In this document: positions 3,683 through 51,349 of the stretch, piece after piece | Layout of the letters: each line of letters starts with the position of its first letter | Position numbering within the stretch: position 1 is the first letter of the stretch | Assembly (NCBI RefSeq): GCF_010672265.1 | Contig: NZ_JAAHHC010000004.1 | Span: forward strand, 70,161-124,802 | DNA: 54,642 bases | Direction: 5' to 3' | DNA from: Moorena sp. SIO3A2 | GTDB taxonomy: Bacteria; Cyanobacteriota; Cyanobacteriia; Cyanobacteriales; Coleofasciculaceae | Notes under the pieces: model-generated | What the model saw: only the letters and a program-made list of their open reading frames with translations | What the model was told of the DNA's origin: nothing | Database searches by the model: none | Program-made: the position numbers and the translations under genes

Positions 3683-3727
3683 TTTCGTATATAATGATAA
3701 ATAAACCGAAAAACAACTACCAACATC

Positions 3728-8887: not shown

Positions 8888-8966
8888 ATAGTAAAGGGAG
8901 TCGGGAGTAAGGATATAGGGAATAGGGGGAGATGGAGGATATTTATATTAAGGTAATTGTCATAAC

Positions 8967-10357: not shown

Positions 10358-10390
10358 TATTATATAATTACCTCAATTGTAATTGAGTAG

Positions 10391-21543: not shown

Positions 21544-21880
21544 AGAATCCTAGGGTGGGCAGTGCCTACCAACCCCCTTGGCAAGCTTCATTATCTGTCT
21601 GATGCACTGCCCACCCTACATCAACTTAAACCTACTTTCCCCATTGGCTACTGCATCAAGAATCCTAGGGTGGGCAGTGCCTACCAACCCCCTTGGCAAG
21701 CTTCATTATCTGTCTGATGCACTGCCCACCCTACATCAACTTAAACCTACCTTCCCCATTGGCTACTGCATCAAGAATCCTAGGGTGGGCAGTGCCTACC
21801 AACCCCCTTGGCAAGCTTCATTATCTGTCTGATGCACTGCCCACCCTACATCAACTTAAACCTACTTTCTGACTCGCCCT
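21544..21880. repeat. about 2.7 tandem copies of a ~121-bp unit, each containing a 13-bp inverted repeat GGGTGGGCAGTGC…GCACTGCCCACCC
   Basis: visible; ORF-track ORFs 21535-21832 are artefacts of it. Confidence 0.9.
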
Positions 21881-21958: not shown

Positions 21959-22044
21959 CGGAGAGGGGGAGATTCGAACTCCCGGAGCCTTTCGGCTCGC
22001 TCGATTTCAAGTCGAGTGCAATCGACCACTCTGCCACCTCTCCT
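21959..22044 (-). tRNA. tRNA-Ser (anticodon UGA), class II with long variable arm
   Basis: reverse complement GGAGAGGTGGCAGAGTGG…CTCGACTTGAAATCGAG…GGAGTTCGAATCTCCCCCTCTCCG; 7-bp acceptor stem, TGA in anticodon loop, T-arm GGAGTTCGAATCTCC. Confidence 0.85.
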
Positions 22045-32052: not shown

Positions 32053-32367
32053 GTGACTACCATGGCCAAAAAATTACTCTCAATAACTAGTAGACCATCA
32101 ACTAGTAGAACATCTCAACCAACGTCAACCTCTACGAGCTCTGAACAAGTCATGAATAATGAGCAGCTTAACCAGGTCGTAGAAGCTATCATCGCGGGCA
32201 AGTATTCTTGGGCTTGTGTGTTAGTTCTGCGTTTTTCTGGTTACAACCCCCTCCATTACATCCCTTACCGAACCTACAATCGCTTAATCAAAGAAAATAG
32301 TCAATCTGGTAAGCATCCAGTTGGCAAAACCCCTGTCTCACAATCACAGGTTGTTAGTAAGGTCTAG
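32053..32367 (+). CDS. HetP-like protein, 104 aa (copy 1)
   Basis: conserved HetP-family core [38 protein letters not shown]. Confidence 0.6.
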
Positions 32368-32801: not shown

Positions 32802-35800
32802 ATGAAGAATATAATCAGGGATTCAGCAGAGCCTAGTAAACCACCGTCTTCTATCAACCCAGACCCTGCTAGCAATTTATCAGTGGTGCTTCAAAGCTTG
32901 ACCCTAGACTCAGTCGATCCAAAGCTCAACTACGAATTTAGTCAATCATTTGACCTTGATCACTTCCAGCTAGGGGATAAAATCCTTGCCTATACTAAAC
33001 CAGAGCTATCCCAAGATTCTGTTGAGATTGAACAAGATCACCAATATCTTTACCTAGTTTGTCAGGGTCGGGTACGACTACTAGGCTTTGATGCTGAAAA
33101 ACAGCGGGAGGTTTCCATACAGGTACTCGAAGAAGGGGAAACTTTTGGTGCCTATGATCTCTTAGGTAGTCTATCCTATCCTTACAGAGCGATCGCAGCG
33201 AGTTCAGGACAAGTTGCTCGTATTTCCCTAAATCAACTCTTGCCTTGGTTGGAACGGTTGCCAAAGTGGTCGGAAATCCTGGGGAAACAAGCCCAGCACC
33301 GGCAATGCCTAATTTTCTTCAAGACTTTGACCAATTTGCGATCGCTTAACGGTGTTACCATAAATCAACTGTTGCCCTACATCGTAGAAACACGCATTGA
33401 GGCTGGGGAGTCTCTGGTGTCCTCTTCCCAAGCTGGTCATTGCTGGCTACGTAGTGGTCAAATGGGAACGCCAGAAGGAACAGAGGCAAATTCCTCTGCT
33501 CCATTTCCTAGCATCGGAGAAAGTTGGGGATATCCGATGCCAGTACCCACAGATTGGATTGCCCAAACTGATGTATTGCTTTACCAGCTGCCTCAAGAGC
33601 ATTGGCAAGCGGCTTGCGCGATCGCACCAGTTTTGGCTAACTCCACCGAGTCACCGGATCAGGAGAACAGGCAAAGTGCTAAAAATGGTGACGGTAAATC
33701 TCCATCGGATCAAGGCGTAGTTAACAAGACCCATACTCCGTCACCACATGCAAACCAGACTAGAGCACGACCGACTCGGCGAGTTTTAGAAACTCCTAAG
33801 CAACAAACGCCCCTTGAACCCAGTCAGTCAGAAAGCTTTGATTTTCCCAAACCAGCAAAGCCGGGTGGGAGATTCCTAAGGTTTTGGCAGCGCTATCCTT
33901 TTATTGAGCAGCAAGCTTCTTCTGATTGTGGTGCTGCCTGCTTAGCCATGATTGGGCAGTATTGGGGCAAACGCTTTGCTCTCAACTCCCTGCGGGAACT
34001 GGCGGGAGTGGGTCGTTCTGGTTCATCCCTCAAAGGTTTAGCTAAAGCAGCGGAAAGTTTAGGGTTTCAAGCTAGTCCAGTCAGGGCTTCTTTAGGTCGC
34101 TTAGCGGATCGGAGTAATCCTTGGATTGCTCACTGGCAAGGAGATCACTATATTGTTGTCTACCAGGTAAAGGGTAATAAGGTACTCGTTGCCGATCCAG
34201 CAGTGGGGAAGCGATCGCTTGCTCGCAAAGACTTTCTCCAAAGTTGGACTGGGTATGCCATGCTATTGGATCCAACTCCCCAACTAGCAATTACTCCCAG
34301 CGACAAACGTTCTTTAGGGCCGTTTTGGGGATTGCTATGGCCCCATCGCTCAGTCCTGCTGCAAATTATCTTGGCTACCCTCATCCTTCAGGTTTTTGGT
34401 CTGATTACTCCCTTATTTACCCAGATCATTCTTGACCGGGTGATTATTAACAGAAGCCTTGTCACTCTCAATGTCTTCTCCATTGGTCTAATCATCTTTG
34501 GCCTTTGGACGATTGGGGTTAGTCTCACCAGACGCTACTTGCTGGACTACTTTTCCAATCGGCTTAGTCTCACCTTCGTCAGTGGCTTCATTAACCATAC
34601 CCTGACCTTACCCCTGAAGTTTTTTGAATCCCGCCAGGTGGGGGATATCCTGACCCGAATTCAGGAAACTGGAAAAATTCAGGGTTTTATAACTCAGCAA
34701 GCGATTGCGACTTGGCTAGATGTGGTGATGGTGTTTGTCTATATTGGACTAATGCTCTACTACAATTGGCGCTTAACCTTGCTGGTGCTGGCAACGATTT
34801 TCCCCATCGCCATCTTGACTGTGATTGCCAGTCCCTTTCTACGCCAGGTGTCCAGGGAAATCTTTAAAGAAGCAGCCCAACAAAATTCTATGTTAGTGGA
34901 AATGATGTCAGGGGTTGCTACTGTGAAAACGGCGGCTTCGGAACAAGAAGTGCGCTGGCGCTGGGAAGATCGCCTCACCAATCAGTTGAATGTACAATTT
35001 AAAGGTAGAAACCTGGCTAACGGGTTAGGGTCAATTAGTTCTCTAATTAATACTCTCAGCAGCACCGCTTTGCTTTGGTTTGGCGCTAGCTTAGTAATTA
35101 ATGAGCAGCTTACTATCGGTCAGTATGTCGCGTTTAATATGCTCATTGGCCGAGTCACTGGTCCGATTTTGGCTCTAGTGAATCTTTGGGATGAGTTTCA
35201 AGAAATCTTGGTGTCTGTAGAACGGCTTAATGATGTCTTATCTGCTAAGCCAGAGGAGAATCCTCAAGAACCAATGTTGGTTCTACCTGAGATTAAGGGT
35301 GATGTAATATTGGAAGATGTTACCTTCCGATACTCCGAGGATGAGGATCGCAATATCCTACAGAATATTTCCCTACAGATTAGGGCTGGAGAAACCATTG
35401 CTCTAGTGGGGCGCAGTGGCTCTGGCAAGAGTACCTTGGTGAAGCTACTGCAAGGTCTCTATCATCCGACTAATGGTCGTATTTTGATAGATGGACACGA
35501 TATCCGCCATATTTCCCCCCAATCTTTGCGTTCTCAAATGGGTGTGGTACCCCAAGAATGTTTCTTGTTCTCGGGGACAATTGTCGAAAATATCACTCTC
35601 TACCGACCGGATTTCAGCCTGGATGAAGCCGTAGAGGTAGCCAAACTAGCAGAAGCTCATGCTTTTATTCAAGGTATGACTTTGGGATATAATACAAAAG
35701 TAGGAGAGCGAGGCTCTACCCTTTCTGGTGGACAGCGACAAAGGATTGCCATAGCCCGAGCCCTATTGGGCAACCCCAAGATTCTGATTCTGGATGAAGC

Positions 35801-36029
35801 GACTAGCTCCCTAGATACAGAATCCGAGCGCCGCTTTCAACAAAACTTAGCTCGCATTAGTCGCGATCGCACTACCTTCATCATCGCCCACCGCCTCTCT
35901 ACAGTGCGCAATGCTGACTGCATCCTTGTCCTAGACCGAGGTGTTCTGGTCGAGAAAGGCAACCATCAGGAACTCATGGATCGTCAAGGTCTTTACTATC
36001 ATCTAGCACAGCAGCAGCTAGATCTTTAA
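32802..36029 (+). CDS. HetC-like ABC exporter: N-terminal cNMP-binding-like domain + peptidase C39 (double-glycine leader peptidase) + 6-TM domain + ABC ATPase, 1075 aa (cassette 1)
   Basis: C39 triad QASSDCGAAC…HYIVVY…D; Walker A GRSGSGKST, signature LSGGQRQRIAIARAL, Walker B ILILDEATS; N-terminal beta-roll-like …LYLVCQGRVRLLGF…GETFGAYDLL…. Confidence 0.9.
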   Translation: MKNIIRDSAEPSKPPSSINPDPASNLSVVLQSLTLDSVDPKLNYEFSQSFDLDHFQLGDKILAYTKPELSQDSVEIEQDHQYLYLVCQGRVRLLGFDAEKQREVSIQVLEEGETFGAYDLLGSLSYPYRAIAASSGQVARISLNQLLPWLERLPKWSEILGKQAQHRQCLIFFKTLTNLRSLNGVTINQLLPYIVETRIEAGESLVSSSQAGHCWLRSGQMGTPEGTEANSSAPFPSIGESWGYPMPVPTDWIAQTDVLLYQLPQEHWQAACAIAPVLANSTESPDQENRQSAKNGDGKSPSDQGVVNKTHTPSPHANQTRARPTRRVLETPKQQTPLEPSQSESFDFPKPAKPGGRFLRFWQRYPFIEQQASSDCGAACLAMIGQYWGKRFALNSLRELAGVGRSGSSLKGLAKAAESLGFQASPVRASLGRLADRSNPWIAHWQGDHYIVVYQVKGNKVLVADPAVGKRSLARKDFLQSWTGYAMLLDPTPQLAITPSDKRSLGPFWGLLWPHRSVLLQIILATLILQVFGLITPLFTQIILDRVIINRSLVTLNVFSIGLIIFGLWTIGVSLTRRYLLDYFSNRLSLTFVSGFINHTLTLPLKFFESRQVGDILTRIQETGKIQGFITQQAIATWLDVVMVFVYIGLMLYYNWRLTLLVLATIFPIAILTVIASPFLRQVSREIFKEAAQQNSMLVEMMSGVATVKTAASEQEVRWRWEDRLTNQLNVQFKGRNLANGLGSISSLINTLSSTALLWFGASLVINEQLTIGQYVAFNMLIGRVTGPILALVNLWDEFQEILVSVERLNDVLSAKPEENPQEPMLVLPEIKGDVILEDVTFRYSEDEDRNILQNISLQIRAGETIALVGRSGSGKSTLVKLLQGLYHPTNGRILIDGHDIRHISPQSLRSQMGVVPQECFLFSGTIVENITLYRPDFSLDEAVEVAKLAEAHAFIQGMTLGYNTKVGERGSTLSGGQRQRIAIARALLGNPKILILDEATSSLDTESERRFQQNLARISRDRTTFIIAHRLSTVRNADCILVLDRGVLVEKGNHQELMDRQGLYYHLAQQQLDL

Positions 36030-36330
36030 TAGATCGTTAACAAGTGCTCATTAGTCATTAGTTATTAGTTATTAGTTATTTAGTCATTAGTCATTTGTAA
36101 ATCCCCATAGACCCTGGTTAGTCACAAAGGACTAATGACTAAGAAAATTTGAAGCTACCTATGACTATATCAAACTATGTAAAAATTTGCCAATTTGGCA
36201 ACACAGTCATGTGAAAAGGACTAATGACTAATGACTAATAATTAATGAAATTTGAAGCTAGCTATCACTATGTCAAGCTTTGTAAAAAGCTGCCAAAAAT
36301 CTGCCAATTTAGCAACATACTCAGATGAAA
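36030..36330. repeat. heptamer repeats (TAGTTAT) followed by two ~95-bp direct repeats each carrying GCCAATTTGGCAACA / GCCAATTTAGCAACA motif
   Basis: visible; the homologous ABC-HlyD spacer in cassette 2 is only 170 bp. Confidence 0.75.
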
Positions 36331-36833: not shown

Positions 36834-38435
36834 ATGACACAAGCAAAACCAATCAACTCCCCACCTGAGGCGGCTACGAGTCGTCAGGGTAACGTCGTTT
36901 TAATGCCATCAGGTCGCCTGAGACCTGATTATGACCAAGAGCCAGGCTCACCCAGCACAGAGGTAGGAAGCAATACTGCCAATGCTCCTAGTACGTCCAA
37001 ATGGTCAACCTCGATACAAACTACCCTCGACCAGCCTCCGGCGAACCTTCCCCGGCTCTTGATGTTGGGTGGATTAAGCTTCTGTACGATATTTGTGGCT
37101 TGGGCAACGTTTGGGCAGATTGATGAAGTCGGTAAAGCTCATGGAAGCTTAGTGCCAAAAGGCGACGTTTATAAAGTTGACCCGATTGAGCCAGGCAAGA
37201 TTGCTAGTATTAAGGTCAAAGAAGGGCAAGCGGTTAAAGCTGGGGAAGTCTTGGTGGAACTGGATACAGAGCTTGCCACTCAGGAAGTAGAACGTTTAGA
37301 GAAAGTTCTTAATGCAGACCGGATTAGGTTAGTTCAGATGCAAGGACTGCTTGAAAGAACCCGTCTAGAAGTAGAAACTCGTGAGCAGATTACCCAAGCA
37401 GAAGTTCAAGCACAACAAGCTTCGATCGCACGAGCACAAGCTAGTGCATCGGCAATTAGACAACAAATCATTCAACATCAGTTAGCTAAAGCTGCTAATC
37501 GCGAACGATTACAACGGATGAAGCTGGTGCAGGCGACAGCCCAAGAACTGCTCCAGCAACGGCGGGCTAATGTAGTGGCTCTCAAGGAACGACTCGATAA
37601 CCTTAAGCCTCTGTTGGCAGAAGGAGCAATCTCGAAAGAACAGGTATTTCAAGCAGAACAAAGCTTTCGTGCTAGCCAAAGTGCTGTTACCGAAAGCAAA
37701 CTGCAAGAGGGTTTGAGTACTCGCGAACAGATCTTTCAAGCTCAGCAAAGTATACGCGATCGCGAAGCGGCGACTAGCCAAAGCCGAGGTGAGCTACAAC
37801 AAACTTTAGCAGAAATTAAGCGACTAGAGGCAGAATTAGAGCATCGGCAAGCAACGGGACGCACCACTCGCCTGGAAGCACAGCAGAAAATTCAACAGTT
37901 GGAAGTGGAACTGACCCAAATCAAAGCTAGAATTTCTGAAAATGAAACCCTGGTTACTACTGCTAAAACCAGGCTCAAACAGAAGTTTCTCAAAGCGCCA
38001 GTGGATGGGATAATATCTTCCCTCAACATTGGTAATGCTGGTGAAGTCGTGCAACCGGGACGTAGCATCGCCGAAATCGCTCCTCAAGGTGCCCCCTTAG
38101 TGCTATCCGCAAGTTTGCCTACTCGCGAGGCAGGGTTTATTAACGAAGGAATGGCGGTGCAAGTGAAATTTGATGCCTATCCCTATCAGGATTACGGCAT
38201 CATCAAAGGCACGGTGATTTCCATCTCTTCCGATGCTAAAGCCGATCAAGTAATGGGTTCAGTCTATAAGGTGAAAGTGTCCCTCGACCGTGACTATGTG
38301 ATTGAAGAGGATGAAATCATCCGGTTTAAGGCTGGTCAAACCGCCAATGCTGACATCATCATCCGCCGCCGTCGGATTATCGATTTCTTATTGGATCCGA
38401 TGCGACAACTGCAAAAAAGCGGCATCGATCTATAG
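36834..38435 (+). CDS. HlyD-family membrane-fusion (periplasmic adaptor) protein, 533 aa (cassette 1)
   Basis: N-terminal TM, biotinyl/lipoyl-like hairpin, long coiled coil, C-terminal beta-domain …IIIRRRRIIDFLLDP…. Confidence 0.85.
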   Translation: MTQAKPINSPPEAATSRQGNVVLMPSGRLRPDYDQEPGSPSTEVGSNTANAPSTSKWSTSIQTTLDQPPANLPRLLMLGGLSFCTIFVAWATFGQIDEVGKAHGSLVPKGDVYKVDPIEPGKIASIKVKEGQAVKAGEVLVELDTELATQEVERLEKVLNADRIRLVQMQGLLERTRLEVETREQITQAEVQAQQASIARAQASASAIRQQIIQHQLAKAANRERLQRMKLVQATAQELLQQRRANVVALKERLDNLKPLLAEGAISKEQVFQAEQSFRASQSAVTESKLQEGLSTREQIFQAQQSIRDREAATSQSRGELQQTLAEIKRLEAELEHRQATGRTTRLEAQQKIQQLEVELTQIKARISENETLVTTAKTRLKQKFLKAPVDGIISSLNIGNAGEVVQPGRSIAEIAPQGAPLVLSASLPTREAGFINEGMAVQVKFDAYPYQDYGIIKGTVISISSDAKADQVMGSVYKVKVSLDRDYVIEEDEIIRFKAGQTANADIIIRRRRIIDFLLDPMRQLQKSGIDL

Positions 38436-38607: not shown

Positions 38608-39042
38608 ATGACCTATCGTATTCCTTCTGCCAATACCAAGCTCGACAAAATGATGGATATTGATAAGTTTAGCGAGATCGAGGAAGCCATCCTTGATGGC
38701 AAATATTCTTGGGCTTGTGTGTTAATGCTACGCTTGGCAGGCCATAACCCCCTAGACTACATGCCTTCTAGAACCTACAGCCGCTTGCTCAAACAAAACC
38801 GGGACATGATCTTACAGAAGCAAGCTAGTATGATGACCAATAGCAATAAAGTCTTGAATGCACGGCAGCGTTTGAGCCAGATCAAAGATCTGGCTTATGT
38901 AGAGACCCTTGGCAAGAAAACTTCACAGGTCCACGGTGGCGATCAAGAACAGTGCTTAATCACTGAACTGGAAGAAGAGGAATCCATCCTCAAGAAGTTA
39001 ACCGATTATTTACGGCAAGACTGTTTGGTTTCCCTGTGGTGA
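38608..39042 (+). CDS. HetP-like protein, 144 aa (copy 2)
   Basis: [38 protein letters not shown]. Confidence 0.6.
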
Positions 39043-39671: not shown

Positions 39672-40005
39672 GCACTTACTTTAGTTGTGGGAGGATTCAA
39701 CCATCAATCTCAAGCCAAAGTGGCGTTCATATTTTTAATTAGATTTGATATAATAACCGGTTCATTACTAATAATTTACTTCACTAAAACCCCATCAACC
39801 TTACCCATCTCTTTGAACTAATTCAGAATCGGTTACTAGTCACTCTTTAGTTGTGGGAGGAGTCAAGCATCAATCTCAAGCCAAAGTGGCGTTCATTTTT
39901 TTTTATATTAGATATAATGACCAGTTTATTCCTAAGAATTTACTTGACTAAAACCCCAGAAATATTACCAATCTATTTGAACTAATCCAGAATTGGTTAC
40001 TGCTG
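39672..40005. repeat. two ~165-bp direct repeats, each with AGCCAAAGTGGCGTTCA motif and AT-rich -10-like tract
   Basis: 39672-39835 vs 39842-40005, ~80% identical. Confidence 0.8.
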
Positions 40006-40054: not shown

Positions 40055-40071
40055 AGCCAAATTGGCGAGAC
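40055..40071 (+). promoter_or_regulatory. GCCAAATTGGCGAGACA motif (near-palindrome + -35-like GAGACA) 108 bp upstream of first family-A precursor gene
   Basis: same motif family as 53251-53280 etc. Confidence 0.45.
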
Positions 40072-40162
40072 ATGCCTAGGGGAATATGGATATAGTTATA
40101 TCAACAGCTAAAACAAAGCTGCTCCACAGAAATAAAATCAACAACAAAGAAGGAGAAAATCA

Positions 40163-40495
40163 ATGCTTATTTCTGACTTAAACCATCTAGAATCCGTTGA
40201 GGCTAGCCAAGTTCAAGGTGGTACTACTATTGCTGGAATCCAATTCGACAACAATGTCACCAGCGTTTTCAACACCACCAGCACCATCACCGAAACTGAA
40301 GTTTTCAATACCAGCATTACTTCTAGCGTAGACATTAATGGTATTACCGCTTCAGGTGGTACTACATCTGAAGGTTCTAGCGATCAAGGTAATAACGTTG
40401 CTACTAAGCAAGAAAGCGTCTTCATCACTATTGAGCAAGGTGGCGTAACTGGTTCCAAGTCTGTAGGTCTTGGCTTCTCTGGAATCAGCCGTTAG
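40163..40495 (+). CDS. double-glycine-leader precursor peptide, family A copy 1 (110 aa; leader MLISDLNHLESVEASQVQGG, 90-aa Cys-free S/T/N/G-rich core)
   Basis: strong RBS AAGGAGAAAATCAATG; leader has hydrophobics at -4,-7,-12,-15 and GG at -2,-1; adjacent to C39-ABC/HlyD. Confidence 0.65.
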   Translation: MLISDLNHLESVEASQVQGGTTIAGIQFDNNVTSVFNTTSTITETEVFNTSITSSVDINGITASGGTTSEGSSDQGNNVATKQESVFITIEQGGVTGSKSVGLGFSGISR

Positions 40496-40573
40496 TAATT
40501 AATCACGAAAAGTTTCTGATTAATTAGTTTCTAAACCTCGATTCATCATCAACAACCAACAAGGAGAAAATCA

Positions 40574-40909
40574 ATGCTTATTTCTGACTTAAATCATCTA
40601 GAATCCGTTGAGGCTAGCCAAGTTCAAGGTGGTACTACTATTGCTGGAATCACATTCAACAACAATGTCACCAGCGTTTTCAACACCACCAGCACCATCA
40701 CCGAAACTGAAGTTTTCGATACCAGCATTACCTCTAGCGTAGACATTAATGGTATTACCGCTTCAGGTGGTACTACATCTGAAGGTTCTAGCGATGCAGG
40801 TAATAACGTTGCTACTAAGCAAGAAAGCGTCTTCATCACTATTGAGCAAGGTGGAGTAACTGGTTCCAAGTCCGTAGGTATTGGCTTCTCTGGAATCAGC
40901 CGTCATTAA
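40574..40909 (+). CDS. double-glycine-leader precursor peptide, family A copy 2 (111 aa)
   Basis: ~95% identical to copy 1; same RBS. Confidence 0.65.
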   Translation: MLISDLNHLESVEASQVQGGTTIAGITFNNNVTSVFNTTSTITETEVFDTSITSSVDINGITASGGTTSEGSSDAGNNVATKQESVFITIEQGGVTGSKSVGIGFSGISRH

Positions 40910-41113
40910 TTAATCAGGACAAGTTACTAATTAAGTAATTTGTAAACCTCGATTCATTATTCAGGGTAAACGCATCTTATTTTGAAATGCCTACTGGATA
41001 TGAGATTCATATGATAAGTATTTTAACTTATTAAGTTTGAAATCTTTTCTGAGTAACGTTTCTATAATTTAGATGGGTTTGCCCATTATTAACAATAAAA
41101 AAGGAGAAAATCA

Positions 41114-41446
41114 ATGCTTATTTCTGATCTAAACCATCTAGAATCCGTTGACGCTAGCCAAGTTCAAGGTGGTACTACTATTGCTGGAATCACATTCAAC
41201 AACAATGTCACCAGCGTTTTCAACACCACCAGCACCATCACCGAAACTGAAGTTTTCAATACCAGCATTATCTCTCGTGTAGACATTAATGGTATTACCG
41301 CTTCAGGTGGTGTTACATCTGAAGCTTCTAGCGATAAAGGTAATAACGTTGCTACTAAGCAAGAAAGCGTCTTCATCACTATTGAGCAAGGTGGAGTAAC
41401 TGGTTCCAAGTCTGTAGGTATTGGCTTCTCTGCTATCAGCCGTTAG
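41114..41446 (+). CDS. double-glycine-leader precursor peptide, family A copy 3 (110 aa)
   Basis: same leader (…SVDASQVQGG), same RBS. Confidence 0.65.
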   Translation: MLISDLNHLESVDASQVQGGTTIAGITFNNNVTSVFNTTSTITETEVFNTSIISRVDINGITASGGVTSEASSDKGNNVATKQESVFITIEQGGVTGSKSVGIGFSAISR

Positions 41447-41734
41447 TACTTAATCAGGAACTTTTTGTGATTAAGTAATTTGTAAACCTGGGTGTATTCA
41501 TATCCTAATATAATGCATTAAATTCAATTCTATATCAAGATTATTGCACTCATTTTTAGGTGTAATTCATTCATTTTGATGACTTCAAAATACTAAAGTA
41601 TCAGTAGTTATATCAAACCGGAACTCAATAGGTTAATTGCCAAATTAGCGAGACAAACATTTTGAACTTTGATAGTTTAATTGAAGTGTCAAACAAGCAG
41701 TTTTATTAAAAAACAAAAAGGAGAGAAATAAATA

Positions 41735-42022
41735 ATGATTATTTCTGATCTAAATCATTTAGAAACTATTGCTGAAGACCCCAAAGTTGTGGGTGGATAT
41801 GGCTACTACCAACCTTACTTCCCTTTCGGATTTAACAAATTTATCAACGTCGGTATTGACATTGAAGAGAACGTAGCTACGATTGATGGCCGCGCACAAG
41901 CCTTTGGTGAGAAGACCTTCACTAACGTCACTGGCAGTACTACCACTACTGAGCATGGTTCTCAATCTACCCTAAGTACAATATCTGTTAGTTCTTCTAA
42001 GAATAAGAAGCATTATTACTAA
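41735..42022 (+). CDS. double-glycine-leader precursor peptide, family B (95 aa; leader MIISDLNHLETIAEDPKVVGG; aromatic-rich core YGYYQPYFPFGF…, ends KKHYY)
   Basis: RBS AAAGGAGAGAAATAAATAATG; leader conserved with family A; preceded by TTGCCAAATTAGCGAGACAAA motif at 41637. Confidence 0.6.
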   Translation: MIISDLNHLETIAEDPKVVGGYGYYQPYFPFGFNKFINVGIDIEENVATIDGRAQAFGEKTFTNVTGSTTTTEHGSQSTLSTISVSSSKNKKHYY

Positions 42023-42327: not shown

Positions 42328-42615
42328 ATGAAAATTGCTCAATTAGAATATTTTGAGCTACAGGCAACAGACCACCCTATTTTAGGTGGTTTTGTTTTTA
42401 CTACTGCTGAAGCCTTCGCTGGTCCTGGCATTGGTGCCACTAATGCTCAGGCCGATGCGTTAGCTCAGCATACCGATACTTCCGTAGAAAGCTTTATCCA
42501 TGTAGACGAGTTCTTTTCTGAAGCTAGGGCAAAAGCTGAGGCTAGGGCTAGGGATCGTCATTACTGGGGTTATTCTGTCCATGATCCCTTTGGGATTTAT
42601 CGTTTGATTGGATAA
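42328..42615 (+). CDS. small protein, 95 aa, possible GG-leader peptide (MKIAQLEYFELQATDHPILGG | FVFTT…)
   Basis: RBS CAGGAGAATCATTCATG; GG at residue 20-21 preceded by IL; leader fit weaker than families A-C. Confidence 0.4.
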   Translation: MKIAQLEYFELQATDHPILGGFVFTTAEAFAGPGIGATNAQADALAQHTDTSVESFIHVDEFFSEARAKAEARARDRHYWGYSVHDPFGIYRLIG

Positions 42616-43196: not shown

Positions 43197-43442
43197 AGCT
43201 ATCAGCTTAATAAAATCTAGTTTCTGTGTGCTGGCTTCAAAACGGGGATTGAGGGGCGAGGTGTTTTGATTGAGGGATAAGTCTCAACTTTGATTTTTGC
43301 TGGCAAATACTCCGCCCTCAATTTGGCAAATTGGCAAAATTTAGGAATTGCTTTTTGTATGATGATAAGAGTCAGACAGTTAACTCAGCTGACTCTGACC
43401 AAGACTGTAAGTAGTTCCAGTTATAGTTCATAATCGGGTGTA

Positions 43443-44201
43443 ATGGTTGACCTTTCCAAAGCATCGGTGACTCCAGAGGAAATTATGTACTCCTTGAAAA
43501 AGGAGATGCATCTGAAGGGCATCTGTCAAAAAGTTTTGTATCAACGAGTTATCAATAAAGCGGCTCAAGAAAGAGGGATAACAGTCACACCAGAAGACGT
43601 GCAAGCTCAGGCGGATGAGATCCGTTATGCCAATCGTTTGGAAAAGGCAGCAGAAACATTGGCCTGGCTGGCAGATCAGATGGTGACAGCAGAGGATTGG
43701 GAAGCGGGAATTAGCGATCGCTTGCTTGCCCAAAAGCTTGCTGAGTCCTTATTTTATAAAGATGTGGAAAAAAGCTTTGCTCAAAATCGACTGGACTTTG
43801 AGCAAGTTTTGGTTTATCAAATTCTGGTGGATTCTGAGGAAATTGCTCAGGAGCTTTTCTATCAGATTGAGGAAGGAGAAATCAGTTTTTATGAAGCTGC
43901 TCATTTCTATGATATAGACCCAGAAAGGCAGCGACGGTGTGGCTATGAAGGAAAGTTGCCTCGTTGGAGTTTTAAGCCTGAGATAGCTGCCCTTATCTTT
44001 AGTGTTCAGCCAGGAGAAGTGACTCATCCCCTGCAAACCGAACAAGGATATCATCTTTTCTTAGTTGAAGAATTTATTCCAGCTGAATTAACCGAAGAAA
44101 AGTCTAAAGAAATTTTACAGAGTATGTTTCAAGAGTGGCTCAATAGTGAAGTTAACTATATGATCCATAGTGAAATTAGTACCATCAATACTGGGGAATA
44201 A
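43443..44201 (+). CDS. parvulin/PpiC-type peptidyl-prolyl cis-trans isomerase-like protein (SurA/PrsA/NifM-like), 252 aa
   Basis: C-terminal …VYQILV…EEIAQELFYQIEEGEISFYEAAHFYDID…CGYEGKLPRWSF…GEVTHPLQTEQGYHLFLVEE… resembles PpiC rotamase domain. Confidence 0.5.
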   Translation: MVDLSKASVTPEEIMYSLKKEMHLKGICQKVLYQRVINKAAQERGITVTPEDVQAQADEIRYANRLEKAAETLAWLADQMVTAEDWEAGISDRLLAQKLAESLFYKDVEKSFAQNRLDFEQVLVYQILVDSEEIAQELFYQIEEGEISFYEAAHFYDIDPERQRRCGYEGKLPRWSFKPEIAALIFSVQPGEVTHPLQTEQGYHLFLVEEFIPAELTEEKSKEILQSMFQEWLNSEVNYMIHSEISTINTGE

Positions 44202-46331
44202 TCCCAATGCTATTAATGGTTTTAGAGAGCAGGGAGCTTCGGAGCAGAGAGCAGGGGTAAGTAAATTTAATTTACCTCATAACTAAAATAACTAACGAAA
44301 ATTACTAACTAGAGTGATGTAACCATGAGACGTTCCCAGACAATCAGAAAATGGATAGTTTCAGCAGATGGTACGGTTGTAGTCCAAGCCGAAAGTACAG
44401 CAACTGCCTCTGGGGATGAAGCAACCATTATTCAAGAGGTTACTGTCAAAAGAGACTAGAGTGGCAGAATTTATAGCAGAAGTTCATCCTCTTGCTATGC
44501 TTCTTATAGTAAGTAGTTTACCTATAGCATTTCTAAATCAATTATACAAAATAATTACCGTTTTTGACCTTGTCTTGAGTAAGCATTTAGCTATCAGGTT
44601 TGGGCCTGTGACCACGCTACTTGAGGTGCTATCAGCTTTGGGTCTGTGGCCAACGGCTGACGGCTGACTGCTGAATGCTTACCAAAATCTAATGCATATA
44701 ATAGTACAACTCCAGTCTCAAAATAAACATGGGGGAGCAACCCAAAAAACAGGGGAGAGCGACCCAAATAGCCAGCCTCAAAATAAACAGGCGGTAGGAA
44801 TTTTAATTACTTTTTGACTGCCACTTTTTGACTGCCACTAAAGACAGTTGTTTAGATCAGCACATCTATGTTTAAGAACTTGAGGAACATTTTCCGAGTT
44901 CCACTCTCGCCCAGAAATTTTTAGTCTTCGATCAATTTGCTTTACTGTAGATTCATACACGATCCCAGGCAATGGAGCAAATTTCCTGAAGTTTATAGTA
45001 ACTATAATTAATAATTCGAGTTCGATGACTTTCTAGATAGTTACAAAAATTAGTTGCTTGTTTTTTCTTTAAAAGAGATATTAACTCAATAGTTTCGGTT
45101 CTTCAGTACCTACTATGCTAAATTTATAGTTTACCCCCCCCCCGAAAAGCTTACTGTGTAAGGGTTATGAGGCTATTTAACCATAAATTTTTCCCATATA
45201 GCTGCCTCTTCCTCCTGCTCCGAAGTCCCTGCTCCGAACGCGCCCCGCGTGGCCTACGGCCTCAGTCCCTTTGGCAAAGTGTTAATTTAGCATAACAAGT
45301 ACGGAAGAGCCATAAAAATAGGTAAGTTAACTGTTGATTAATTGATCTCAAGTCCTGAGGATGAGTGATGATTAACAATATCCGCGTTTTTGCTTCCCCT
45401 TACTTCTCCCCATCTCCCGATCAGTTTTAATCATTAGTATTTAAGGGTCGATGATATGACGACCAGATAGGGAGTATGGTGGTCTGTAAGCTGGCGAATT
45501 TAAGTTGGCGAATTATTGAGGGGTATAACCCCTAGGGTAATTGACAAACCGGATCACACTATCAGGGATCACAAAGCTTCTCTAGGAGCTGAGACATTGC
45601 TGTACTTGTGAATTTTGTTTAAAGTTTATAACAAGATTTTATCAAGAGAAAGTAAAGTAATTGTGAAACTATTGATAACTACTAAACTGATTATATGAAT
45701 AGTTAGTTTAGTGAAAATGTTATGAAAACTTGACAACTCTATCTAGCTGGTTAACTTCAATCTGGCCACTTAACTTCAATAAGATTTGATAAACTTTTAT
45801 TTAAGCTATTGTCAAAACCGTGAATTGATCGTGAAAACAACTTGACAGCGCCGATTAACTTCACATAGGATGATTCCGGAGATTGTCCTTGGGGTTACTG
45901 GTAAGGAATATGTAGAAAAGATTTGAAGTTTTAAGAAATATGTAAGTATATTGAGTTTTCAGGGGAAAAAACTCATAATTAATTTCACAAGCTTTTCATG
46001 AAGTTACCTAAAAAAGGGCGATCAGCCTCCCGGAGCAAGGGTGAACATCAAATTATTACTTATTACCTCGATTAGCTGGGATTGCTTAGGTGGCATCAAA
46101 CGGCAAACAGTTGTTGAATGCCACAGTACTCCTAAGTCAAATCCTAATTCAACCCCAGGGAACACTACTGGGACTATCACTAGGGAAAAAGGGAGACCAG
46201 AGTCTATGTGACTACCCAGAGTACTGTTTGAACAATCAATACTGGTGCCAATCAAATGGATCCGAAGACTCCACCTAACCATGGCGCTAGTCAATACAAG
46301 GTAAAACTAACTAAAGAAGGGGTTCTACCTA

Positions 46332-49300
46332 ATGCATCAGAAAACGGTCGGTTTAGAAAAATCAGGGCAACCACCAGATTCCCTTGGCCAATACCCGACC
46401 CAGAAATCTTCCGAGGTTATTGAACACCTAATCGCGAACTGGTTGGATAAGACCCTATCAAATACACTATTACCAGAATTTAGTCAATCCTTCCAAATTC
46501 ATAACTTTGATCTAGGTGATGAAATTATACCCTATCCTAGACGGGAGTTAAGCCAAAATTATGTTCAAAATGAACCAAATAAGTATTTTTACGTGGTCTG
46601 TTGCGGGCGGGTGCGGCTGCTAAGCTTTGATGGTGAAAAACAGCGGGACGTATCCGTACAGGTTCTTGAAGAGGGGGCAACCTTTGGGGCTGAGGAACTG
46701 TTGTGCAACCTATCTTATCCTTACCAAGCGATCGCAGCGAGTTCAGGACAGATTGCTCGGATGTCCTTAGCTGAACTGCAACCTTGGTTAGAACAGCTAC
46801 CGGAGTGGCTCGAACACCTACAGCAACAAGCTCAGCACCGGCAACGCTTGATTTTCTTCAAGACCTTAACAGCATTGCGATCGCTTGACAGCATCACTCT
46901 ACAGCAATTGTTGCCCTACCTGGTAGACACACGGATTTCCGCTGGGGAGTCCTTAGTTAAGTCTGGCCAAGTTGGTCGTTACTGGCTACGTAGTGGTCAG
47001 ATTGAAAGGGGCGGAGTTCAACAGAATTGCCCACTAACTATTGCAAGGGGCGAAAGTTGGGGCTATCCTCAGCCAGTGCCGGAAGATTGGATTGCTCAAA
47101 GCGATTTATGGGTAACCCATCTACCAAAGGAACATTGGGAAACTGCCCAAATGATGGCACCGGTGCTGGCAAAGTTGAGTCCACAGACGGGTCAAACCTC
47201 TGAAAATGGACACCAGAAATCAGGGGCGACTAGCGCCATAGTCCACCCAGTCCGTACTCAGCCCGGTCACAGAGTACCGCTAATTCCATCCAACCTCCCT
47301 ACCAATGGAAATGCTGAAACACAAAGTAACTCGACCCAGGCTGAGTCTAAACTGATACCATTTCCCGTACCGACGAAGCGACCTTTTATTCAGGGGTTGT
47401 GGCAACGCTATCCCTTCATTGAACAGCAATCCTCTTCAGATTGTGGCGCTGCTTGCTTGGCAATGATTGGACGCTACTGGGGCAAACGATTTAGCTTGAA
47501 TTCCCTACGGAATCTGGCAGGGGTGGGGCGTTCTGGGTCATCCCTGAAAGGGTTAGCCAGAGCATCAGAAACCTTGGGATTTCAAGCTACTCCAGTTAGA
47601 GCGTCTTTAGCTCGCCTAGCGGATCGGAGTAACCCCTGGATTGCTCACTGGCAAGGTGATCATTATATAGTTGTCTATTCGGTCAAAGGGGAGAAGGTAC
47701 TTGTTGCGGATCCAGCTGTGGGAAAGCGGACGCTTTCTCGACAACAATTTCTAGAGGGTTGGACAGGATATGCGCTGCTGTTGAATCCTACTCCCCAGCT
47801 AGCAGGGACTCCCAATCAAAAGATTTCTCTGAATCGCTTTTGGGGATTGCTATGGCCCCATCGCATAGTCCTGTTGCAAATTATCCTAGCTTCCCTACTG
47901 CTCCAGGTTTTTGGTCTGATTACCCCCCTGTTTACCCAAATCATTTTGGATCGGGTGGTGGTTAACAAAAGTGTTGTTACCCTCAATGTGTTTGCAATTG
48001 GTCTAGTCATCTTTGGCCTTTGGAGCATAGGCTTGAGTGTCACCAGACGCTACCTGCTGGATTACTTTTCCAATCGACTCAGTCTTACCTTTGTCAGTGG
48101 TTTTATTAAGCATACCCTCACACTACCCCTGAAGTTTTTTGAATCCCGCCAGGTGGGGGACATCCTGACCCGAGTCCAGGAAACTGGGAAAATTCAGGCG
48201 TTCCTGACTCAGCAAGCCATTGCTACTTGGCTGGATGTGGTAATGATGTTTGTCTATGTGGGGCTGATGCTCTACTACAACTGGCACCTAACCTTGCTGG
48301 TCCTGGCAACGATTGTACCGATTGCGATTTTGACCATAGTTGCCAGTCCATTTCTACGCCAAGTGTCCAGGGAAATCTTTAAAGAAACAGCAGCACAAAA
48401 CTCCCTGTTAGTAGAAATGATGTCGGGAGTAGCAACTGTCAAAGCAGCAGCCTCTGAACAAGAGGTGCGCTGGCGCTGGGAAGACCGCCTCACGGGTCAG
48501 TTGAATATGGTATTCAAAGGACAGAACTTGGCCAACGGCTTAGGGTCAGTCAGTGGGTTGATTAATAACCTCAGCGGCACGGCTTTACTGTGGTTCGGGG
48601 CAAGTCTGGTAATTCAGGAACAGCTCACGATTGGTCAATTTGTGGCATTCAATATGCTCATTGGTCGGGTGATTAGCCCGATTTTGTCTTTGGTGGGACT
48701 TTGGGATGAGTTCCAGGAAATCTTGGTATCGGTGGAACGGCTCGATGATGTCTTGACCACCCAGCCAGAAGAGAATACCCAAAAACCCCTGATGCCATTG
48801 CCTGCGATCGCGGGGCATGTCCAGTTTGACAATGTCAGCTTTCGCTATAGTGAGGATGATGAACAATACACCCTTCAAAACATTTCCTTCGAGGTTGCCC
48901 CTGGAAAGACCATAGCCATTGTCGGACGCAGTGGCTCGGGCAAAAGTACCTTGGTCAAGCTGCTCCAAGGACTCTATCACCCAACTACAGGCCGTATTTT
49001 GATTGATAGCCACGACATCCGACATGTTTCTCCCCAGTCTTTGCGCTCTCAATTAGGTGTGGTACCTCAAGAATGCTTTTTGTTTTCAGGGACGATTTTA
49101 GAGAACATCACCTTATACAAACCTGAGTATAGCCTCGAACAAGGGGTAGAAGTTGCCAAATTGGCTGAAGCTCATGTGTTTATTCAAAACCTGCCCCTGG
49201 GATACAACACCAAGGTTGGGGAGCGAGGGTCTAACCTGTCTGGGGGACAACGGCAACGGATTGCGATCGCCCGAGCCTTGCTGGGTAACCCCAAGATTCT

Positions 49301-49544
49301 GATTCTCGATGAAGCGACTAGCTCCCTAGATACAGAATCCGAGCGACGTTTTCAACAAAATTTAGCTCGCATTAGTCGCGATCGCACTACCTTCATCATT
49401 GCCCACCGTCTTTCTACGGTGCGCAATGCCGACTCTATACTGGTCCTCGACCAAGGTCTGATCGCAGAGCGCGGTACCCACTCCGAACTCATGGCTGAGA
49501 AAGGTCTGTACTACCACCTAGCCCAGCAGCAGCTGGATCTTTAA
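46332..49544 (+). CDS. HetC-like ABC exporter with N-terminal cNMP-binding-like domain + peptidase C39 + TMD + NBD, 1070 aa (cassette 2)
   Basis: QQSSSDCGAAC…HYIVVY C39 motifs; GRSGSGKST; LSGGQRQRIAIARAL; collinear and ~75% identical to 32802-36029. Confidence 0.9.
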   Translation: MHQKTVGLEKSGQPPDSLGQYPTQKSSEVIEHLIANWLDKTLSNTLLPEFSQSFQIHNFDLGDEIIPYPRRELSQNYVQNEPNKYFYVVCCGRVRLLSFDGEKQRDVSVQVLEEGATFGAEELLCNLSYPYQAIAASSGQIARMSLAELQPWLEQLPEWLEHLQQQAQHRQRLIFFKTLTALRSLDSITLQQLLPYLVDTRISAGESLVKSGQVGRYWLRSGQIERGGVQQNCPLTIARGESWGYPQPVPEDWIAQSDLWVTHLPKEHWETAQMMAPVLAKLSPQTGQTSENGHQKSGATSAIVHPVRTQPGHRVPLIPSNLPTNGNAETQSNSTQAESKLIPFPVPTKRPFIQGLWQRYPFIEQQSSSDCGAACLAMIGRYWGKRFSLNSLRNLAGVGRSGSSLKGLARASETLGFQATPVRASLARLADRSNPWIAHWQGDHYIVVYSVKGEKVLVADPAVGKRTLSRQQFLEGWTGYALLLNPTPQLAGTPNQKISLNRFWGLLWPHRIVLLQIILASLLLQVFGLITPLFTQIILDRVVVNKSVVTLNVFAIGLVIFGLWSIGLSVTRRYLLDYFSNRLSLTFVSGFIKHTLTLPLKFFESRQVGDILTRVQETGKIQAFLTQQAIATWLDVVMMFVYVGLMLYYNWHLTLLVLATIVPIAILTIVASPFLRQVSREIFKETAAQNSLLVEMMSGVATVKAAASEQEVRWRWEDRLTGQLNMVFKGQNLANGLGSVSGLINNLSGTALLWFGASLVIQEQLTIGQFVAFNMLIGRVISPILSLVGLWDEFQEILVSVERLDDVLTTQPEENTQKPLMPLPAIAGHVQFDNVSFRYSEDDEQYTLQNISFEVAPGKTIAIVGRSGSGKSTLVKLLQGLYHPTTGRILIDSHDIRHVSPQSLRSQLGVVPQECFLFSGTILENITLYKPEYSLEQGVEVAKLAEAHVFIQNLPLGYNTKVGERGSNLSGGQRQRIAIARALLGNPKILILDEATSSLDTESERRFQQNLARISRDRTTFIIAHRLSTVRNADSILVLDQGLIAERGTHSELMAEKGLYYHLAQQQLDL

Positions 49545-49714: not shown

Positions 49715-51349
49715 ATGAACAAACCACAACCATCTATCCCGTCTAGAGAGGGACTCCCTGAGGGACAAACCCCTCACCCTAATCTAACCTCAGCTGAGAT
49801 TAGATCGATCTATGGGGGGACAGCGGTATCAGCACCACCACTCCCCCAATCAGCTAATCATGTTCAAAATCCGGTCACACCAACATCATCACTAGGGGCT
49901 ACCAACACTGAAAACTGGTCAACAGCCCTACAAAATTTACTGGATCAGCCACCATCGGTACTGCCCCAGAGACTGCTTTTGGGAGGATTCGCCTTCTGTA
50001 TGGTCTGTGGGGTTTGGGCAACCTTTGGCCAAATTGACGAAGTGGGTAAAGCCACAGGCAAGTTAGTGCCAAAAGGAGAAGTGTATAAAATTCATCCGAT
50101 CCAATCCGGCAAGGTCGCCAAGATTGCGGTCAAAGAAGGGGAATCGGTTACCGCTGGGCAAGTCTTGGTGGAACTGGATAAAGAACTTGGCGCTACTGAA
50201 GTAGAGCGTTTGGAGCAACTGATCAATGCTGACCAAATCAAATTAATTCAGATGCAAGGGCTGATTGAAAACATCCACCAAGAAGCCCAAACCCGTCAGC
50301 AAATTGCCAAAGCGGACATTGACGCACAACAGGCCGCTATCGCTCAGGCACAGACTAAAGTAGCCGCCTTACGAGAACAACTGATCCAACATCAGCAGGC
50401 AAACGTCGCCAGTCAGGACAGACTAGAACGCCTAAAACGGCTCAAGGCGACTACCCAAGCACTGCTCCAGCAACGACAGGATGATGCATTTGCCCTTAAG
50501 GAACGCCTAGAGAATCTCAAACCCCTGTTAGCATCAGGGGCAATCTCAAAAGAACAAGTATTTCAAGCAGAACATAGCCTACGAGCGAGTCAGCGGGTGA
50601 TTACCCAAACCCAACTGCAAGAAGCAGCCAGTAACCAAGACCAGATTTATCAAGCCCAGCAGAGTATACGCGATCGCAACAGCGCGATCACTCTGACTCA
50701 CAGCGATCTCAACCAGACCTTAGCAGAAATCCAACGACTTCAGGCAGGTCTAACTCAGAAGCAAGCGGAAGTGCATCGGACTCAGCTAGAGACCAAGCAG
50801 AAACTTCAGCAGTTGGAGATCGAACTGACTCAACTAAATGCCAAAATTGCTGAAAACCGCAATCTGCTAACTAGTGCGAAAGCTAGGCTCAAACAAAAGT
50901 TTCTCTATGCACCGGTGGATGGAGTAGTTTCCTCCCTCAATGTTGCCAATATTGGTGAAGTCTTTCAACCCGGTCAAACCATTGCCGAAGTAGCGCCCCA
51001 AGATGCGCCCCTGGTGTTATCAGCTAGTTTACCTAATCAGGAGGCAGGCTTTATCAAAGAAGGAATGCCGGTGCAAATCAAGCTTGATGCCTATCCCTAT
51101 CAGGAATACGGCATCATCAAAGGGAAAGTCACTTCCCTTTCTGCCGATGCCAAAACTGATCAACAACTTGGTTCGGTTTATGAGGTGGAAGTTTCCCTAA
51201 ACCGTGACTACGTTACAGAAGACGATCAAATGATCCGATTCAAACCTGGTCAGACAGCCAAAGCTGACATCATTATCCGCCGCCGTCGGATTGTGGATTT
51301 CTTGTTAGATCCGATCCGACAGCTGCAAAAAGGTGGTGTCAATCTATAG
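49715..51349 (+). CDS. HlyD-family membrane-fusion protein, 544 aa (cassette 2)
   Basis: collinear with 36834-38435; same C-terminal IIIRRRRIVDFLLDP. Confidence 0.85.
   Translation: MNKPQPSIPSREGLPEGQTPHPNLTSAEIRSIYGGTAVSAPPLPQSANHVQNPVTPTSSLGATNTENWSTALQNLLDQPPSVLPQRLLLGGFAFCMVCGVWATFGQIDEVGKATGKLVPKGEVYKIHPIQSGKVAKIAVKEGESVTAGQVLVELDKELGATEVERLEQLINADQIKLIQMQGLIENIHQEAQTRQQIAKADIDAQQAAIAQAQTKVAALREQLIQHQQANVASQDRLERLKRLKATTQALLQQRQDDAFALKERLENLKPLLASGAISKEQVFQAEHSLRASQRVITQTQLQEAASNQDQIYQAQQSIRDRNSAITLTHSDLNQTLAEIQRLQAGLTQKQAEVHRTQLETKQKLQQLEIELTQLNAKIAENRNLLTSAKARLKQKFLYAPVDGVVSSLNVANIGEVFQPGQTIAEVAPQDAPLVLSASLPNQEAGFIKEGMPVQIKLDAYPYQEYGIIKGKVTSLSADAKTDQQLGSVYEVEVSLNRDYVTEDDQMIRFKPGQTAKADIIIRRRRIVDFLLDPIRQLQKGGVNL

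Follow-up and report, generated by a model that had tools for sequence, protein, structure and literature searches.

Double-glycine-leader proteins beside HetC-type exporters in Moorena: probable unmodified export cargo with a possible structural role outside the cell

What do the arrays of small genes beside HetC-type exporters in filamentous cyanobacteria encode? We addressed this question in a 54,642-nt stretch of DNA (the window) from Moorena sp. SIO3A2, a marine filamentous cyanobacterium without heterocysts (assembly GCF_010672265.1, contig NZ_JAAHHC010000004.1, positions 70,161-124,802). The window harbors two tandem modules on the + strand, in which genes for a peptidase-containing ATP-binding cassette (ABC) exporter, a HlyD-family membrane fusion protein, and a HetP-like protein are followed by an array of precursors with a double-glycine (GG) leader; module 1 has in addition a short HetP-family gene and a rotamase gene. 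From their leaders and gene context, the precursors are very probably the unmodified cargo of the adjacent HetC-type exporters, and they are best placed, alongside class II microcins or the EbfG proteins, with the GG-leader cargo of peptidase ABC exporters. Clusters of this type have already been catalogued (Wang et al., 2011, PMC3140520). The new finding is that most of the precursors define a large cyanobacterial family, as yet unnamed, which goes together with HetC/HetP-type modules and has a conserved promoter element.

Precursors, leaders, and exporters

The first array consists of five precursors (A1-A3, B, and D) and the second of at least two (C1 and C2; Table 1). The back-translated degenerate DNA pattern of M-x-I-S-D-L-N-H-[LI]-E matched the window exactly six times, at the starts of A1-A3, B, C1, and C2, compared with 0.00 matches expected from 100 shuffles. 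The A and B genes have in common an upstream block of about 60 nt, inside which an AAGGAG(A) ribosome-binding site lies 7-9 nt ahead of the ATG, and orthologues of the window precursors are present in many Moorena genomes. The A, B, C, and D open reading frames (ORFs) are therefore genuine genes for small proteins. Precursor A2 is 100% identical to the RefSeq entry 'MULTISPECIES: hypothetical protein [Moorena]'. All ORFs of the three precursor families listed in an earlier note on this DNA exist, including family C at 53837-54642, which lies outside the range of 40163-42022 that the note covered, but the D gene had been overlooked. As the note had also pointed out, the three family-A copies differ mostly in the core: there are 9-13 codon differences between them, the sole leader change is E13D, and the non-synonymous to synonymous differences of the copy pairs are 5:4, 10:3, and 8:4.

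In the canonical GG leader, LSxxELxxIxGG, hydrophobic residues occupy positions -4, -7, -12, and -15, and an acidic residue occupies position -8. The leaders in the window are 20-21 aa long and end in GG or GA, which fits an N-terminal GG leader. In a profile built from 83 unique leaders, position -2 was G in 100%, position -1 was G in 89% (A 8%, S 2%), position -4 was V/I/L in 96%, and position -8 was E in 72%, with mostly S/A/E at -7. The 20-aa leaders of family A have L at -12 and -15, and the 21-aa leaders are offset by one residue. At the sequence level, the positional rules of GG leaders thus seem to be largely obeyed by the precursors. The comparison with a TIGR01847-like leader model, which the earlier note had proposed, was negative, since no relevant NCBIfam or Pfam model (TIGR01847-type, NHLP, or N11P) matched the window precursors or 10 diverse family representatives at E ≤ 1, apart from stray weak hits to families of another kind. 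The leader string as such was not found in the literature searched. In four Fischerella loci (L042, L046, L052, and L057), the same leader is found on precursors of 52-67 aa, whose Cys- and Tyr-rich cores have the motif ...KNVAVAVAVAGDRK... in common. By sequence, these short cores appear to make up a separate class of cargo that uses this leader.

Both exporters retain the catalytic Q-x4-DCGAAC sequence, GDHYIVVY, and the Walker motifs (QQASSDCGAAC and Walker A/B in exporter 1), and look catalytically competent at the motif level. Exporter 1 passed the cut-off of TIGR01193 ('peptide cleavage/export ABC transporter') with 528.4 versus 523.85 bits. The leader positions and the Pfam domains bear out the proposal that GG/GA-leader precursors adjoin HetC-like C39 ABC exporters and HlyD proteins. 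From these motif checks and general knowledge of peptidase-containing ABC transporters, we infer a route of cleavage and export without modification. The leader (20-21 residues) would dock on the transporter's cytoplasmic C39 peptidase domain and would be cleaved off after GG, or after GA in family C. The core of 74-91 residues (about 8-9 kDa, acidic to neutral, Cys-free) would then leave the cell unmodified via the ABC transporter, the HlyD adaptor, and an outer-membrane channel encoded elsewhere.

The composition of the window cores (0 Cys, pI 4.1-6.9, 8.1-9.2 kDa) agrees with the description of Cys-free cores in the earlier note. Pfam scans of window ORFs of at least 100 aa detected, among the ORFs scanned, no LanB/C/M, cyclodehydratase, or radical-SAM protein, as the note had stated, and no extra tailoring gene; a TldD/PmbA-family protein is encoded in the window at a distance of 22 kb. 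Taken together with the lack of NHLP/N11P matches, these results argue against lanthipeptides, cyanobactins, NHLP/N11P-type products, and other classical ribosomally made peptides with post-translational modification (RiPPs). Large unmodified class II-like secreted peptides, which the note had suggested, are the most economical reading of the leaders, the C39 exporters, and the absent modification genes. A new RiPP class, in which the rotamase-like protein, or an enzyme encoded outside the window, would modify the Ser/Thr/Asn-rich cores, for example by glycosylation, dehydration, or cross-linking, is very improbable. The Ser/Thr/Asn content of the cores is indeed very high (34% Ser+Thr in family A), but the core is a conserved domain, unlike the hypervariable cassette of a RiPP precursor, and has no Cys. 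The PpiC-like rotamase, which is conserved in the cluster and present in most related loci, is weakly similar to TIGR04500 ('putative peptide maturation system protein'; E 1.1e-11), but its score of 44.6 bits is far under the cut-off of 180. An uncharacterised 625-aa protein lies between precursors and rotamase in Microcoleus, whereas no known modification enzyme was found among the scanned ORFs of the 54.6-kb window or among the genes conserved in related loci (homologues of window genes, and three loci read). For natural-product mining in Moorena, we argue that these loci are not RiPP sources.

Relationships and distribution of the cores

The cores had been described in the earlier note as unrelated to each other and unusually long; neither statement held. 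After removal of the leaders, the B and C cores were aligned by hhalign over 50 columns with 93.9% probability (E 1.5e-7). They have in common a C-terminal domain of about 50 residues, and metagenomic B relatives ending in ...SFAAVD link the two families. Family A aligns weakly (E 0.0017). Using a B+C profile, we searched 1.84 billion cluster representatives (50% identity clusters) and found at least 525 clusters at E ≤ 1e-3, of which 133 were at E ≤ 1e-10. Among the best 150 of the 525 clusters, nearly all were full-length matches to proteins of 85-112 aa. Class II microcins are also similar in size to the 95-111 aa precursors found here. The homologue search that the note had proposed was thus productive for the B/C cores, whereas the family-A homologues were all Moorena or unnamed metagenome sequences (11 of 11).

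We constructed a broad core alignment of 119 core-only sequences drawn from the profile matches, with the consensus ..di.K.v.s.vdvkGN.A.AeAdA.AyG.NTfTet.t.T.TtpysS.S.s.S.Sat. By hhalign, this alignment matched B with E 9.5e-19, C with E 6.9e-24, and D with E 6.9e-6 (84.6%). By these comparisons, B, C, and D belong to one large unnamed family, which in this survey came only from cyanobacterial genomes, and family A is at best a Moorena-restricted, divergent relative. Precursor D is kept in four Moorena loci, and its leader equals that of B in length. A hidden Markov model of the D core matched the last-in-array precursors of nine Microcoleus loci and of Limnospira (E 4e-8 to 7e-6), and therefore D represents an old, distinct paralogue type. 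Neither Pfam nor NCBIfam was found to contain a model for the B/C core family when the window precursors and 10 diverse members were scanned at E ≤ 1, and the same scan gave no match that would support a likeness of the GN-x-A-x-A motifs to curli repeats. In one metagenome protein (P0188), a Sec-type signal peptide replaces the GG leader ahead of the same core domain. Another metagenome protein (P0049, 3176 aa) had 14 stretches matching the core profile, but was read as a cadherin/Ig-like repeat adhesin with VNDxPT repeats; its match is probably a sum of weak hits driven by composition and repeats, not homology.

AlphaFold2 gave a confident monomer fold for neither family A nor family B. In the model of family B, a C-terminal beta-hairpin had a predicted local distance difference test (pLDDT) score of 70-79, but the mean pLDDT was 56.6; in that of family A (mean pLDDT 39.7), a similar C-terminal hairpin was drawn at low confidence. 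A Foldseek search of the Protein Data Bank (PDB) with the B model found nothing at E ≤ 0.001, and when the family profile was compared with PDB sequences, no credible match appeared, cyanovirin ranking first with E 0.022.

For the survey of loci, one genome per species was scanned for M[IN]ISDLNH, and the loci were annotated with the window proteins as queries. The 57 loci obtained were all cyanobacterial and most were from filamentous species; the genera include Moorena, Microcoleus, Oscillatoria, Coleofasciculus, Limnospira, Tychonema, Scytonema, Mastigocoleus, Fischerella, Hassallia, Chroococcidiopsis, and Pseudanabaena. About 45 of them have the order exporter, HlyD, optional HetP-like gene, one to six precursors, and rotamase, and in several Nostocales the order is exporter, HlyD, rotamase, and precursor, without HetP. 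Among the 36 loci having at least two complete precursors, 19 have an adjacent pair with cores ≥85% identical; such near-identical neighbors suggest selection for dosage. A mixed set of a major type plus a D-type precursor in last position recurs in Moorena, Microcoleus, and Limnospira. No conserved immunity-like small membrane protein was seen in the cluster across the 57 loci. At one Microcoleus locus (L008), a Ser/Ala/Thr/Pro-rich low-complexity protein of 625 aa is encoded at 9020-10897, between the last precursor and the rotamase, and other Microcoleus loci have a gap of similar size at this position.

Both modules of the window fit group II of Wang et al., 2011 (PLoS One 6:e22384, PMC3140520), in which a long-type C39 ABC transporter and HlyD are accompanied by a rotamase of the SurA/PpiC type, by a neighboring HetP-like protein whose motif is KIxDLxYLEx10GG, and by several precursors (39-152 aa, class 'other') that have a GG leader. 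The gene order of the approximately 45 loci is that of the group II (and group I) cluster. The core family and its consensus, the N-terminal ISDLNH leader as a twin of the internal HetP motif, and the upstream palindrome described below were defined here and not by Wang et al. The M16 peptidase of group II was not found in the scanned window ORFs; an ORF that may be M16-like was noticed at one related locus (L014) on inspection by eye.

Possible roles outside the cell

What might the cores do once exported? We tentatively favor, with somewhat less than even confidence, the reading that they are unmodified exporter cargo with an extracellular self-assembling role in structure or matrix: the cores would be beta-strand-rich, self-associating components like EbfG. 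The self-assembly as such we infer only weakly, by analogy. EbfG1-4 of Synechococcus elongatus PCC 7942 are GG-motif proteins that are exported by PteB and needed for biofilm formation (Parnasa et al., 2016, PMC4997328); EbfG1-3 form amyloid and EbfG4 is not amyloid-prone (Frenkel et al., 2023, PMC9981879). As in Moorena, small GG/GA-motif proteins are encoded in a tandem array beside a C39 ABC exporter and HlyD; there are about four in Synechococcus, with precursors of 9-10 kDa and mature forms of 6-7 kDa, and one to six precursors at related loci of the present family. The mixture of amyloid-prone and other EbfG proteins is comparable to the major-type plus D-type set. EbfG proteins are exported and leader-trimmed, as is predicted for the Moorena proteins. 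On the other hand, PteB belongs to another exporter clade and, judged by domain content, is without the cyclic nucleotide (cNMP)-binding domain, and its homologues in Anabaena are Alr7014, Alr1201, and Alr5147, not HetC. No HetP or rotamase is described for the EbfG cluster, with which the likeness was drawn from published descriptions, and mature EbfG has no homology to proteins of other cyanobacteria according to its authors (PMC4997328).

A structural role is suggested by the near-identical tandem copies, the major/D-type set, and the strong ribosome-binding sites, by the lack of a conserved immunity-like gene in the cluster, and by the Ser/Thr/Ala/Gly-rich alternating sequence without a confident monomer fold. 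P0188, in which a Sec signal peptide stands where the others have the GG leader, and the precedent of EbfG1-4 in cyanobacteria point in the same direction, and the conservation of the core domain across cyanobacterial orders makes us lean towards this role. GG-leader proteins are usually filed as bacteriocins, yet the tested cyanobacterial examples, EbfG, build biofilms. The family described here would supply candidate extracellular structural proteins of sheath- and mat-forming cyanobacteria.

It is possible, if on balance unlikely, that the proteins are instead class II microcin-like bacteriocins, whose unmodified 8-9 kDa cores kill or inhibit cyanobacteria that compete with the producer and are probably related to it. 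Receptor recognition would then fall to the conserved C-terminal domain and toxicity to the variable N-terminal part, with immunity residing in a small unrecognised gene or elsewhere. Class II microcins (MccV, MccE492, MccAB1) are smaller than 10 kDa, un- or lightly modified, and made with a 15-20-aa GG/GA/GS signal; they are Gly/Ser/Ala-rich and often acidic, with a conserved C-terminus (PMC13188072). The Moorena cores of 8.1-9.2 kDa, with their GG-type leader and adjacent exporter and HlyD, match this description in size, acidity, and Gly/Ser/Ala/Thr-rich composition, the paralogues differ mostly within the core, and Wang et al., 2011 (PMC3140520) labeled such loci bacteriocin clusters. However, no conserved immunity candidate was found across the 57 loci and none is evident at the Moorena loci, and no sequence similarity was detected (no Pfam/NCBIfam matches). 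The core family is broadly conserved in one phylum, where it spans orders within one housekeeping-like HetP and rotamase module rather than being patchy or strain-specific. Moreover, near-identical tandem copies are frequent, and the experimentally characterised cyanobacterial GG-motif proteins are biofilm proteins, not toxins.

Several points weigh against the structural reading. In their make-up, the loci resemble class II microcin loci, in which small, acidic GG-leader proteins rich in Gly, Ser, and Ala accompany a peptidase ABC exporter and a fusion protein, and microcins, too, combine a variable N-terminal core with a conserved C-terminus (PMC13188072). Some class II microcins form amyloid and promote biofilms (PMC13188072); since a microcin can be both toxin and amyloid former, the two roles are not exclusive. 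The propensity for amyloid or self-assembly is read from composition and low-confidence models. An immunity gene or a modification enzyme could lie outside the window. Finally, family A, with three of the precursors, has a weak link to the broad core alignment (15% probability at the E-value given above, in a consistent register). A signalling role, which is discussed with the HetP-like proteins below, and an unrecognised modification are less likely.

HetP-like proteins, upstream elements, and neighboring features

A leader-like motif is present inside 33 of 37 HetP-like proteins from the window and related loci, compared with 1 of 633 background ORFs, and this lone ORF occupies the HetP position. 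The motif starts at a median residue of 93 and is followed by a tail of 16-55 residues; examples are IKDLAYVE...HGG and IKDLDYAK...VQGG in HetP-like proteins 1 and 2 of the window and KIADLNHLEVV...GG in Coleofasciculus. The short HetP-family protein, the third of its family in the window, has the HetP domain without the internal leader. Because the internal motif is near-identical to the leader of the co-clustered cargo, the HetP-like proteins are plausible candidates for ligands or substrates of the C39 domain. No solved structural relative of HetP was found.

The modules resemble the hetC-hetP locus of Anabaena/Nostoc PCC 7120 in the order of exporter domains (cNMP-binding, C39, ABC) and in the adjacent HetP-family gene, and HetP itself (alr2818) has the same internal ...IHGG motif. 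The HetC likeness is one of domain order. The Moorena modules differ in having HlyD and GG-leader genes, whereas, according to its authors, the Anabaena locus is without HlyD and without a recognisable GG-leader gene in its vicinity, and no substrate of HetC is known (Rachedi et al., 2024, PMC10986499); none was identified in the literature searched from 2019 to 2026. A link between HetP and C39 is relevant for this reason. For the question of what HetC-type exporters transport, also in heterocyst development, the present family supplies candidate cargo, a cleavage site, and expected masses.

Upstream of the precursor and rotamase genes, we found the inverted repeat GCCAA-N-TTGGC, 95-118 nt ahead of the start codons. 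It is exact ahead of A1 and C1 and has one mismatch ahead of B, C2, and the rotamase gene. The counts far exceed expectation, with 23 versus 1.2 expected in the window and 51 versus about 2.8 expected in related loci, where 35 of 122 precursor genes have it in the -130 to -60 interval. The genera include Moorena, Limnospira, Microcoleus, Tychonema, Coleofasciculus, Iningainema, and others. From its sequence and position, this candidate element is probably the operator of a dimeric regulator, and offers a handle for finding that regulator. Tandem repeats fill the spacers between the HetP-like gene and the first precursor of both arrays, and each unit has a copy or near-copy of GCCAA-N-TTGGC: a 164-bp repeat (2 copies, 39679-40001) lies between HetP-like 1 and A1, and the 125-bp array ahead of C1 is also found in two other Moorena loci (L017 and L031). 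In addition, an AACA-R-R-GTTG box lies about 45-55 nt upstream of the precursor starts across genera (e.g. 40101-40115 and 53775-53790), in the presumed 5' untranslated region (5'UTR). A conserved hairpin in this region was not supported, as RNAalifold gave 0 pairs over 13 diverse 5'UTRs; the box is therefore a sequence motif only.

These elements raise the doubtful idea that B/C/D, and perhaps A, are the native bulk cargo of HetC-type exporters in filamentous cyanobacteria, with a HetP-coupled feedback via GCCAA-N-TTGGC. The C39 domain would dock on or cleave the HetP-like protein via its internal leader copy, the N-terminal HetP domain would feed back on the transcription of the cargo genes, and this feedback would act through the GCCAA-N-TTGGC copy situated about 100 nt upstream of every transcription unit. 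If the idea is true, HetC would gain its missing substrate class and HetP a biochemical role, and the hetC-hetP pair of heterocysts would descend, in reduced form, from an older module for the export of extracellular matrix or sheath proteins. The family would gain in interest if its link to the function of HetC and HetP is real.

By contrast with a bulk product, the exported proteins, or C-terminal peptides freed from the HetP-like proteins, might be cell-cell signals along the filament, with export coupled to transcription via HetP and GCCAA-N-TTGGC in parallel to the HetC heterocyst model. We consider this quite unlikely. With 74-91 aa, two to six near-identical gene copies, and strong ribosome-binding sites, the mature products look more like bulk material than like signals, and the cluster encodes no candidate receptor. 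The exporters, with their cNMP-binding domain, are of the HetC type and the window has three HetP-family genes, but Moorena has no heterocysts. The internal leader copy in the HetP-like proteins and the operator-like element that precursor genes of several genera have about 100 nt upstream would suit a coupling to transcription, whereas to our knowledge no DNA binding by HetP is known. A similar model has been put forward by Rachedi et al., 2024 (PMC10986499).

Table 1. Features of the two exporter modules in the window (positions in nt of the window)
Feature	Position	Strand	Details
Short HetP-family protein	32053-32367	+	104 aa; NCBIfam NF037966 E 6e-35; HetP domain only; directly upstream of exporter 1
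Exporter 1, HetC-like	32802-36029	+	Pfam cNMP_binding, Peptidase_C39 (4.5e-41), ABC_membrane (six-helix), ABC_tran
HlyD-family membrane fusion protein 1	36834-38435	+	Pfam HlyD_3; TIGR01843 249.9 bits (cut-off 208.65)
HetP-like protein 1	38608-39042	+	144 aa; NF037966 E 5e-27; internal motif at residues 92-111 (nt 38881-38940); 33-aa tail
Inverted repeat GCCAA-A-TTGGC	40056-40066	+	107 nt ahead of A1 start; adjoins promoter-like site 40067-40096
Precursor A1	40163-40495	+	110 aa; leader residues 1-20 (nt 40163-40222); 90-aa core, predicted 9128 Da unmodified
Precursor A2	40574-40909	+	111 aa; 20-aa leader; 91-aa core, predicted 9181 Da
Precursor A3	41114-41446	+	110 aa; 20-aa leader; 90-aa core, predicted 9207 Da
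Precursor B	41735-42022	+	95 aa; 21-aa leader; 74-aa core, predicted 8243 Da; member of B/C core family
Precursor D	42328-42615	+	21-aa leader MKIAQLEYFELQATDHPILGG; 74-aa core, predicted 8163 Da; divergent member of core family; last in precursor array; GGAG box upstream
ORF of 98 aa	42900-43196	+	AAGGAG upstream; same position in 4 Moorena loci; no recognisable leader
PpiC/SurA-type rotamase	43443-44201	+	Pfam Rotamase E 3.8e-11; no N-terminal signal peptide by eye
Small ORF downstream of rotamase	44325-44459	+	44 aa; alignment with Moorena and Scytonema-group loci
Exporter 2, HetC-like peptidase-containing ABC transporter	46332-49544	+	Peptidase_C39 6.5e-41
HlyD-family membrane fusion protein 2	49715-51349	+	Pfam; passes TIGR01843 cut-off
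HetP-like protein 2	52014-52421	+	135 aa; NF037966 E 5e-21; internal motif IKDLDYAKPLDSRSQLVQGG at residues 93-112 (nt 52290-52349); 23-aa tail
125-bp tandem repeat	53247-53792	+	4.6 copies; four units with GCCAAATTGGC then T/GTGACA; last element 108 nt before C1 start
Precursor C1	53837-54130	+	97 aa; 21-aa leader ending GA; 76-aa core, predicted 8145 Da; member of B/C core family
Precursor C2	54356-54642	+	near-identical copy of C1; incomplete at window end
GCCAA-N-TTGGC copies	36189-36199, 39714/39880, 41639-41649, 43325-43335, 53252-53739 (four), 54248-54258		

Two further small ORFs accompany the first module (Table 1). The ORF of 98 aa between D and the rotamase gene was ruled out as a member of the core family, having no relation by hhalign, and could be an accessory or immunity candidate. 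The ORF downstream of the rotamase is without a leader and has a weak likeness to the core family (hhalign 38%). It is found from Moorena to the Scytonema group, with relatives of 63-73 aa (L001, L002, L004, L014, L017, L022, L032, and L041); the similar one in L041 (Chroococcidiopsis) reads K-x-I-V-S-P-D-G-x-V-V-x-x-A-x-S.... At 44 aa it appears truncated in this genome.

By Pfam, the other large ORFs of the window encode NACHT-HEAT proteins, a chloride channel, a kinase, and thioredoxin. Two very large NACHT-HEAT repeat proteins, of 1093 and 1719 aa, have their genes within 60-9761 together with a HEAT protein of 264 aa, and their HEAT repeats correspond to 102-bp tandem repeats of the DNA with 82-89% identity (14, 26, and 4 copies at 1648-3072, 5994-8636, and 9020-9459, respectively). 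An Rfam scan of the window found tRNA-Ser only (21959-22043), and adjoining it is a 115-bp repeat of 2.8 copies with 99% identity (21544-21869). Between HetP-like 2 and the C precursors, two perfect or near-perfect tandem repeats of 19 bp (5.6 copies) and 25 bp (4.4 copies) occupy 52598-52813.

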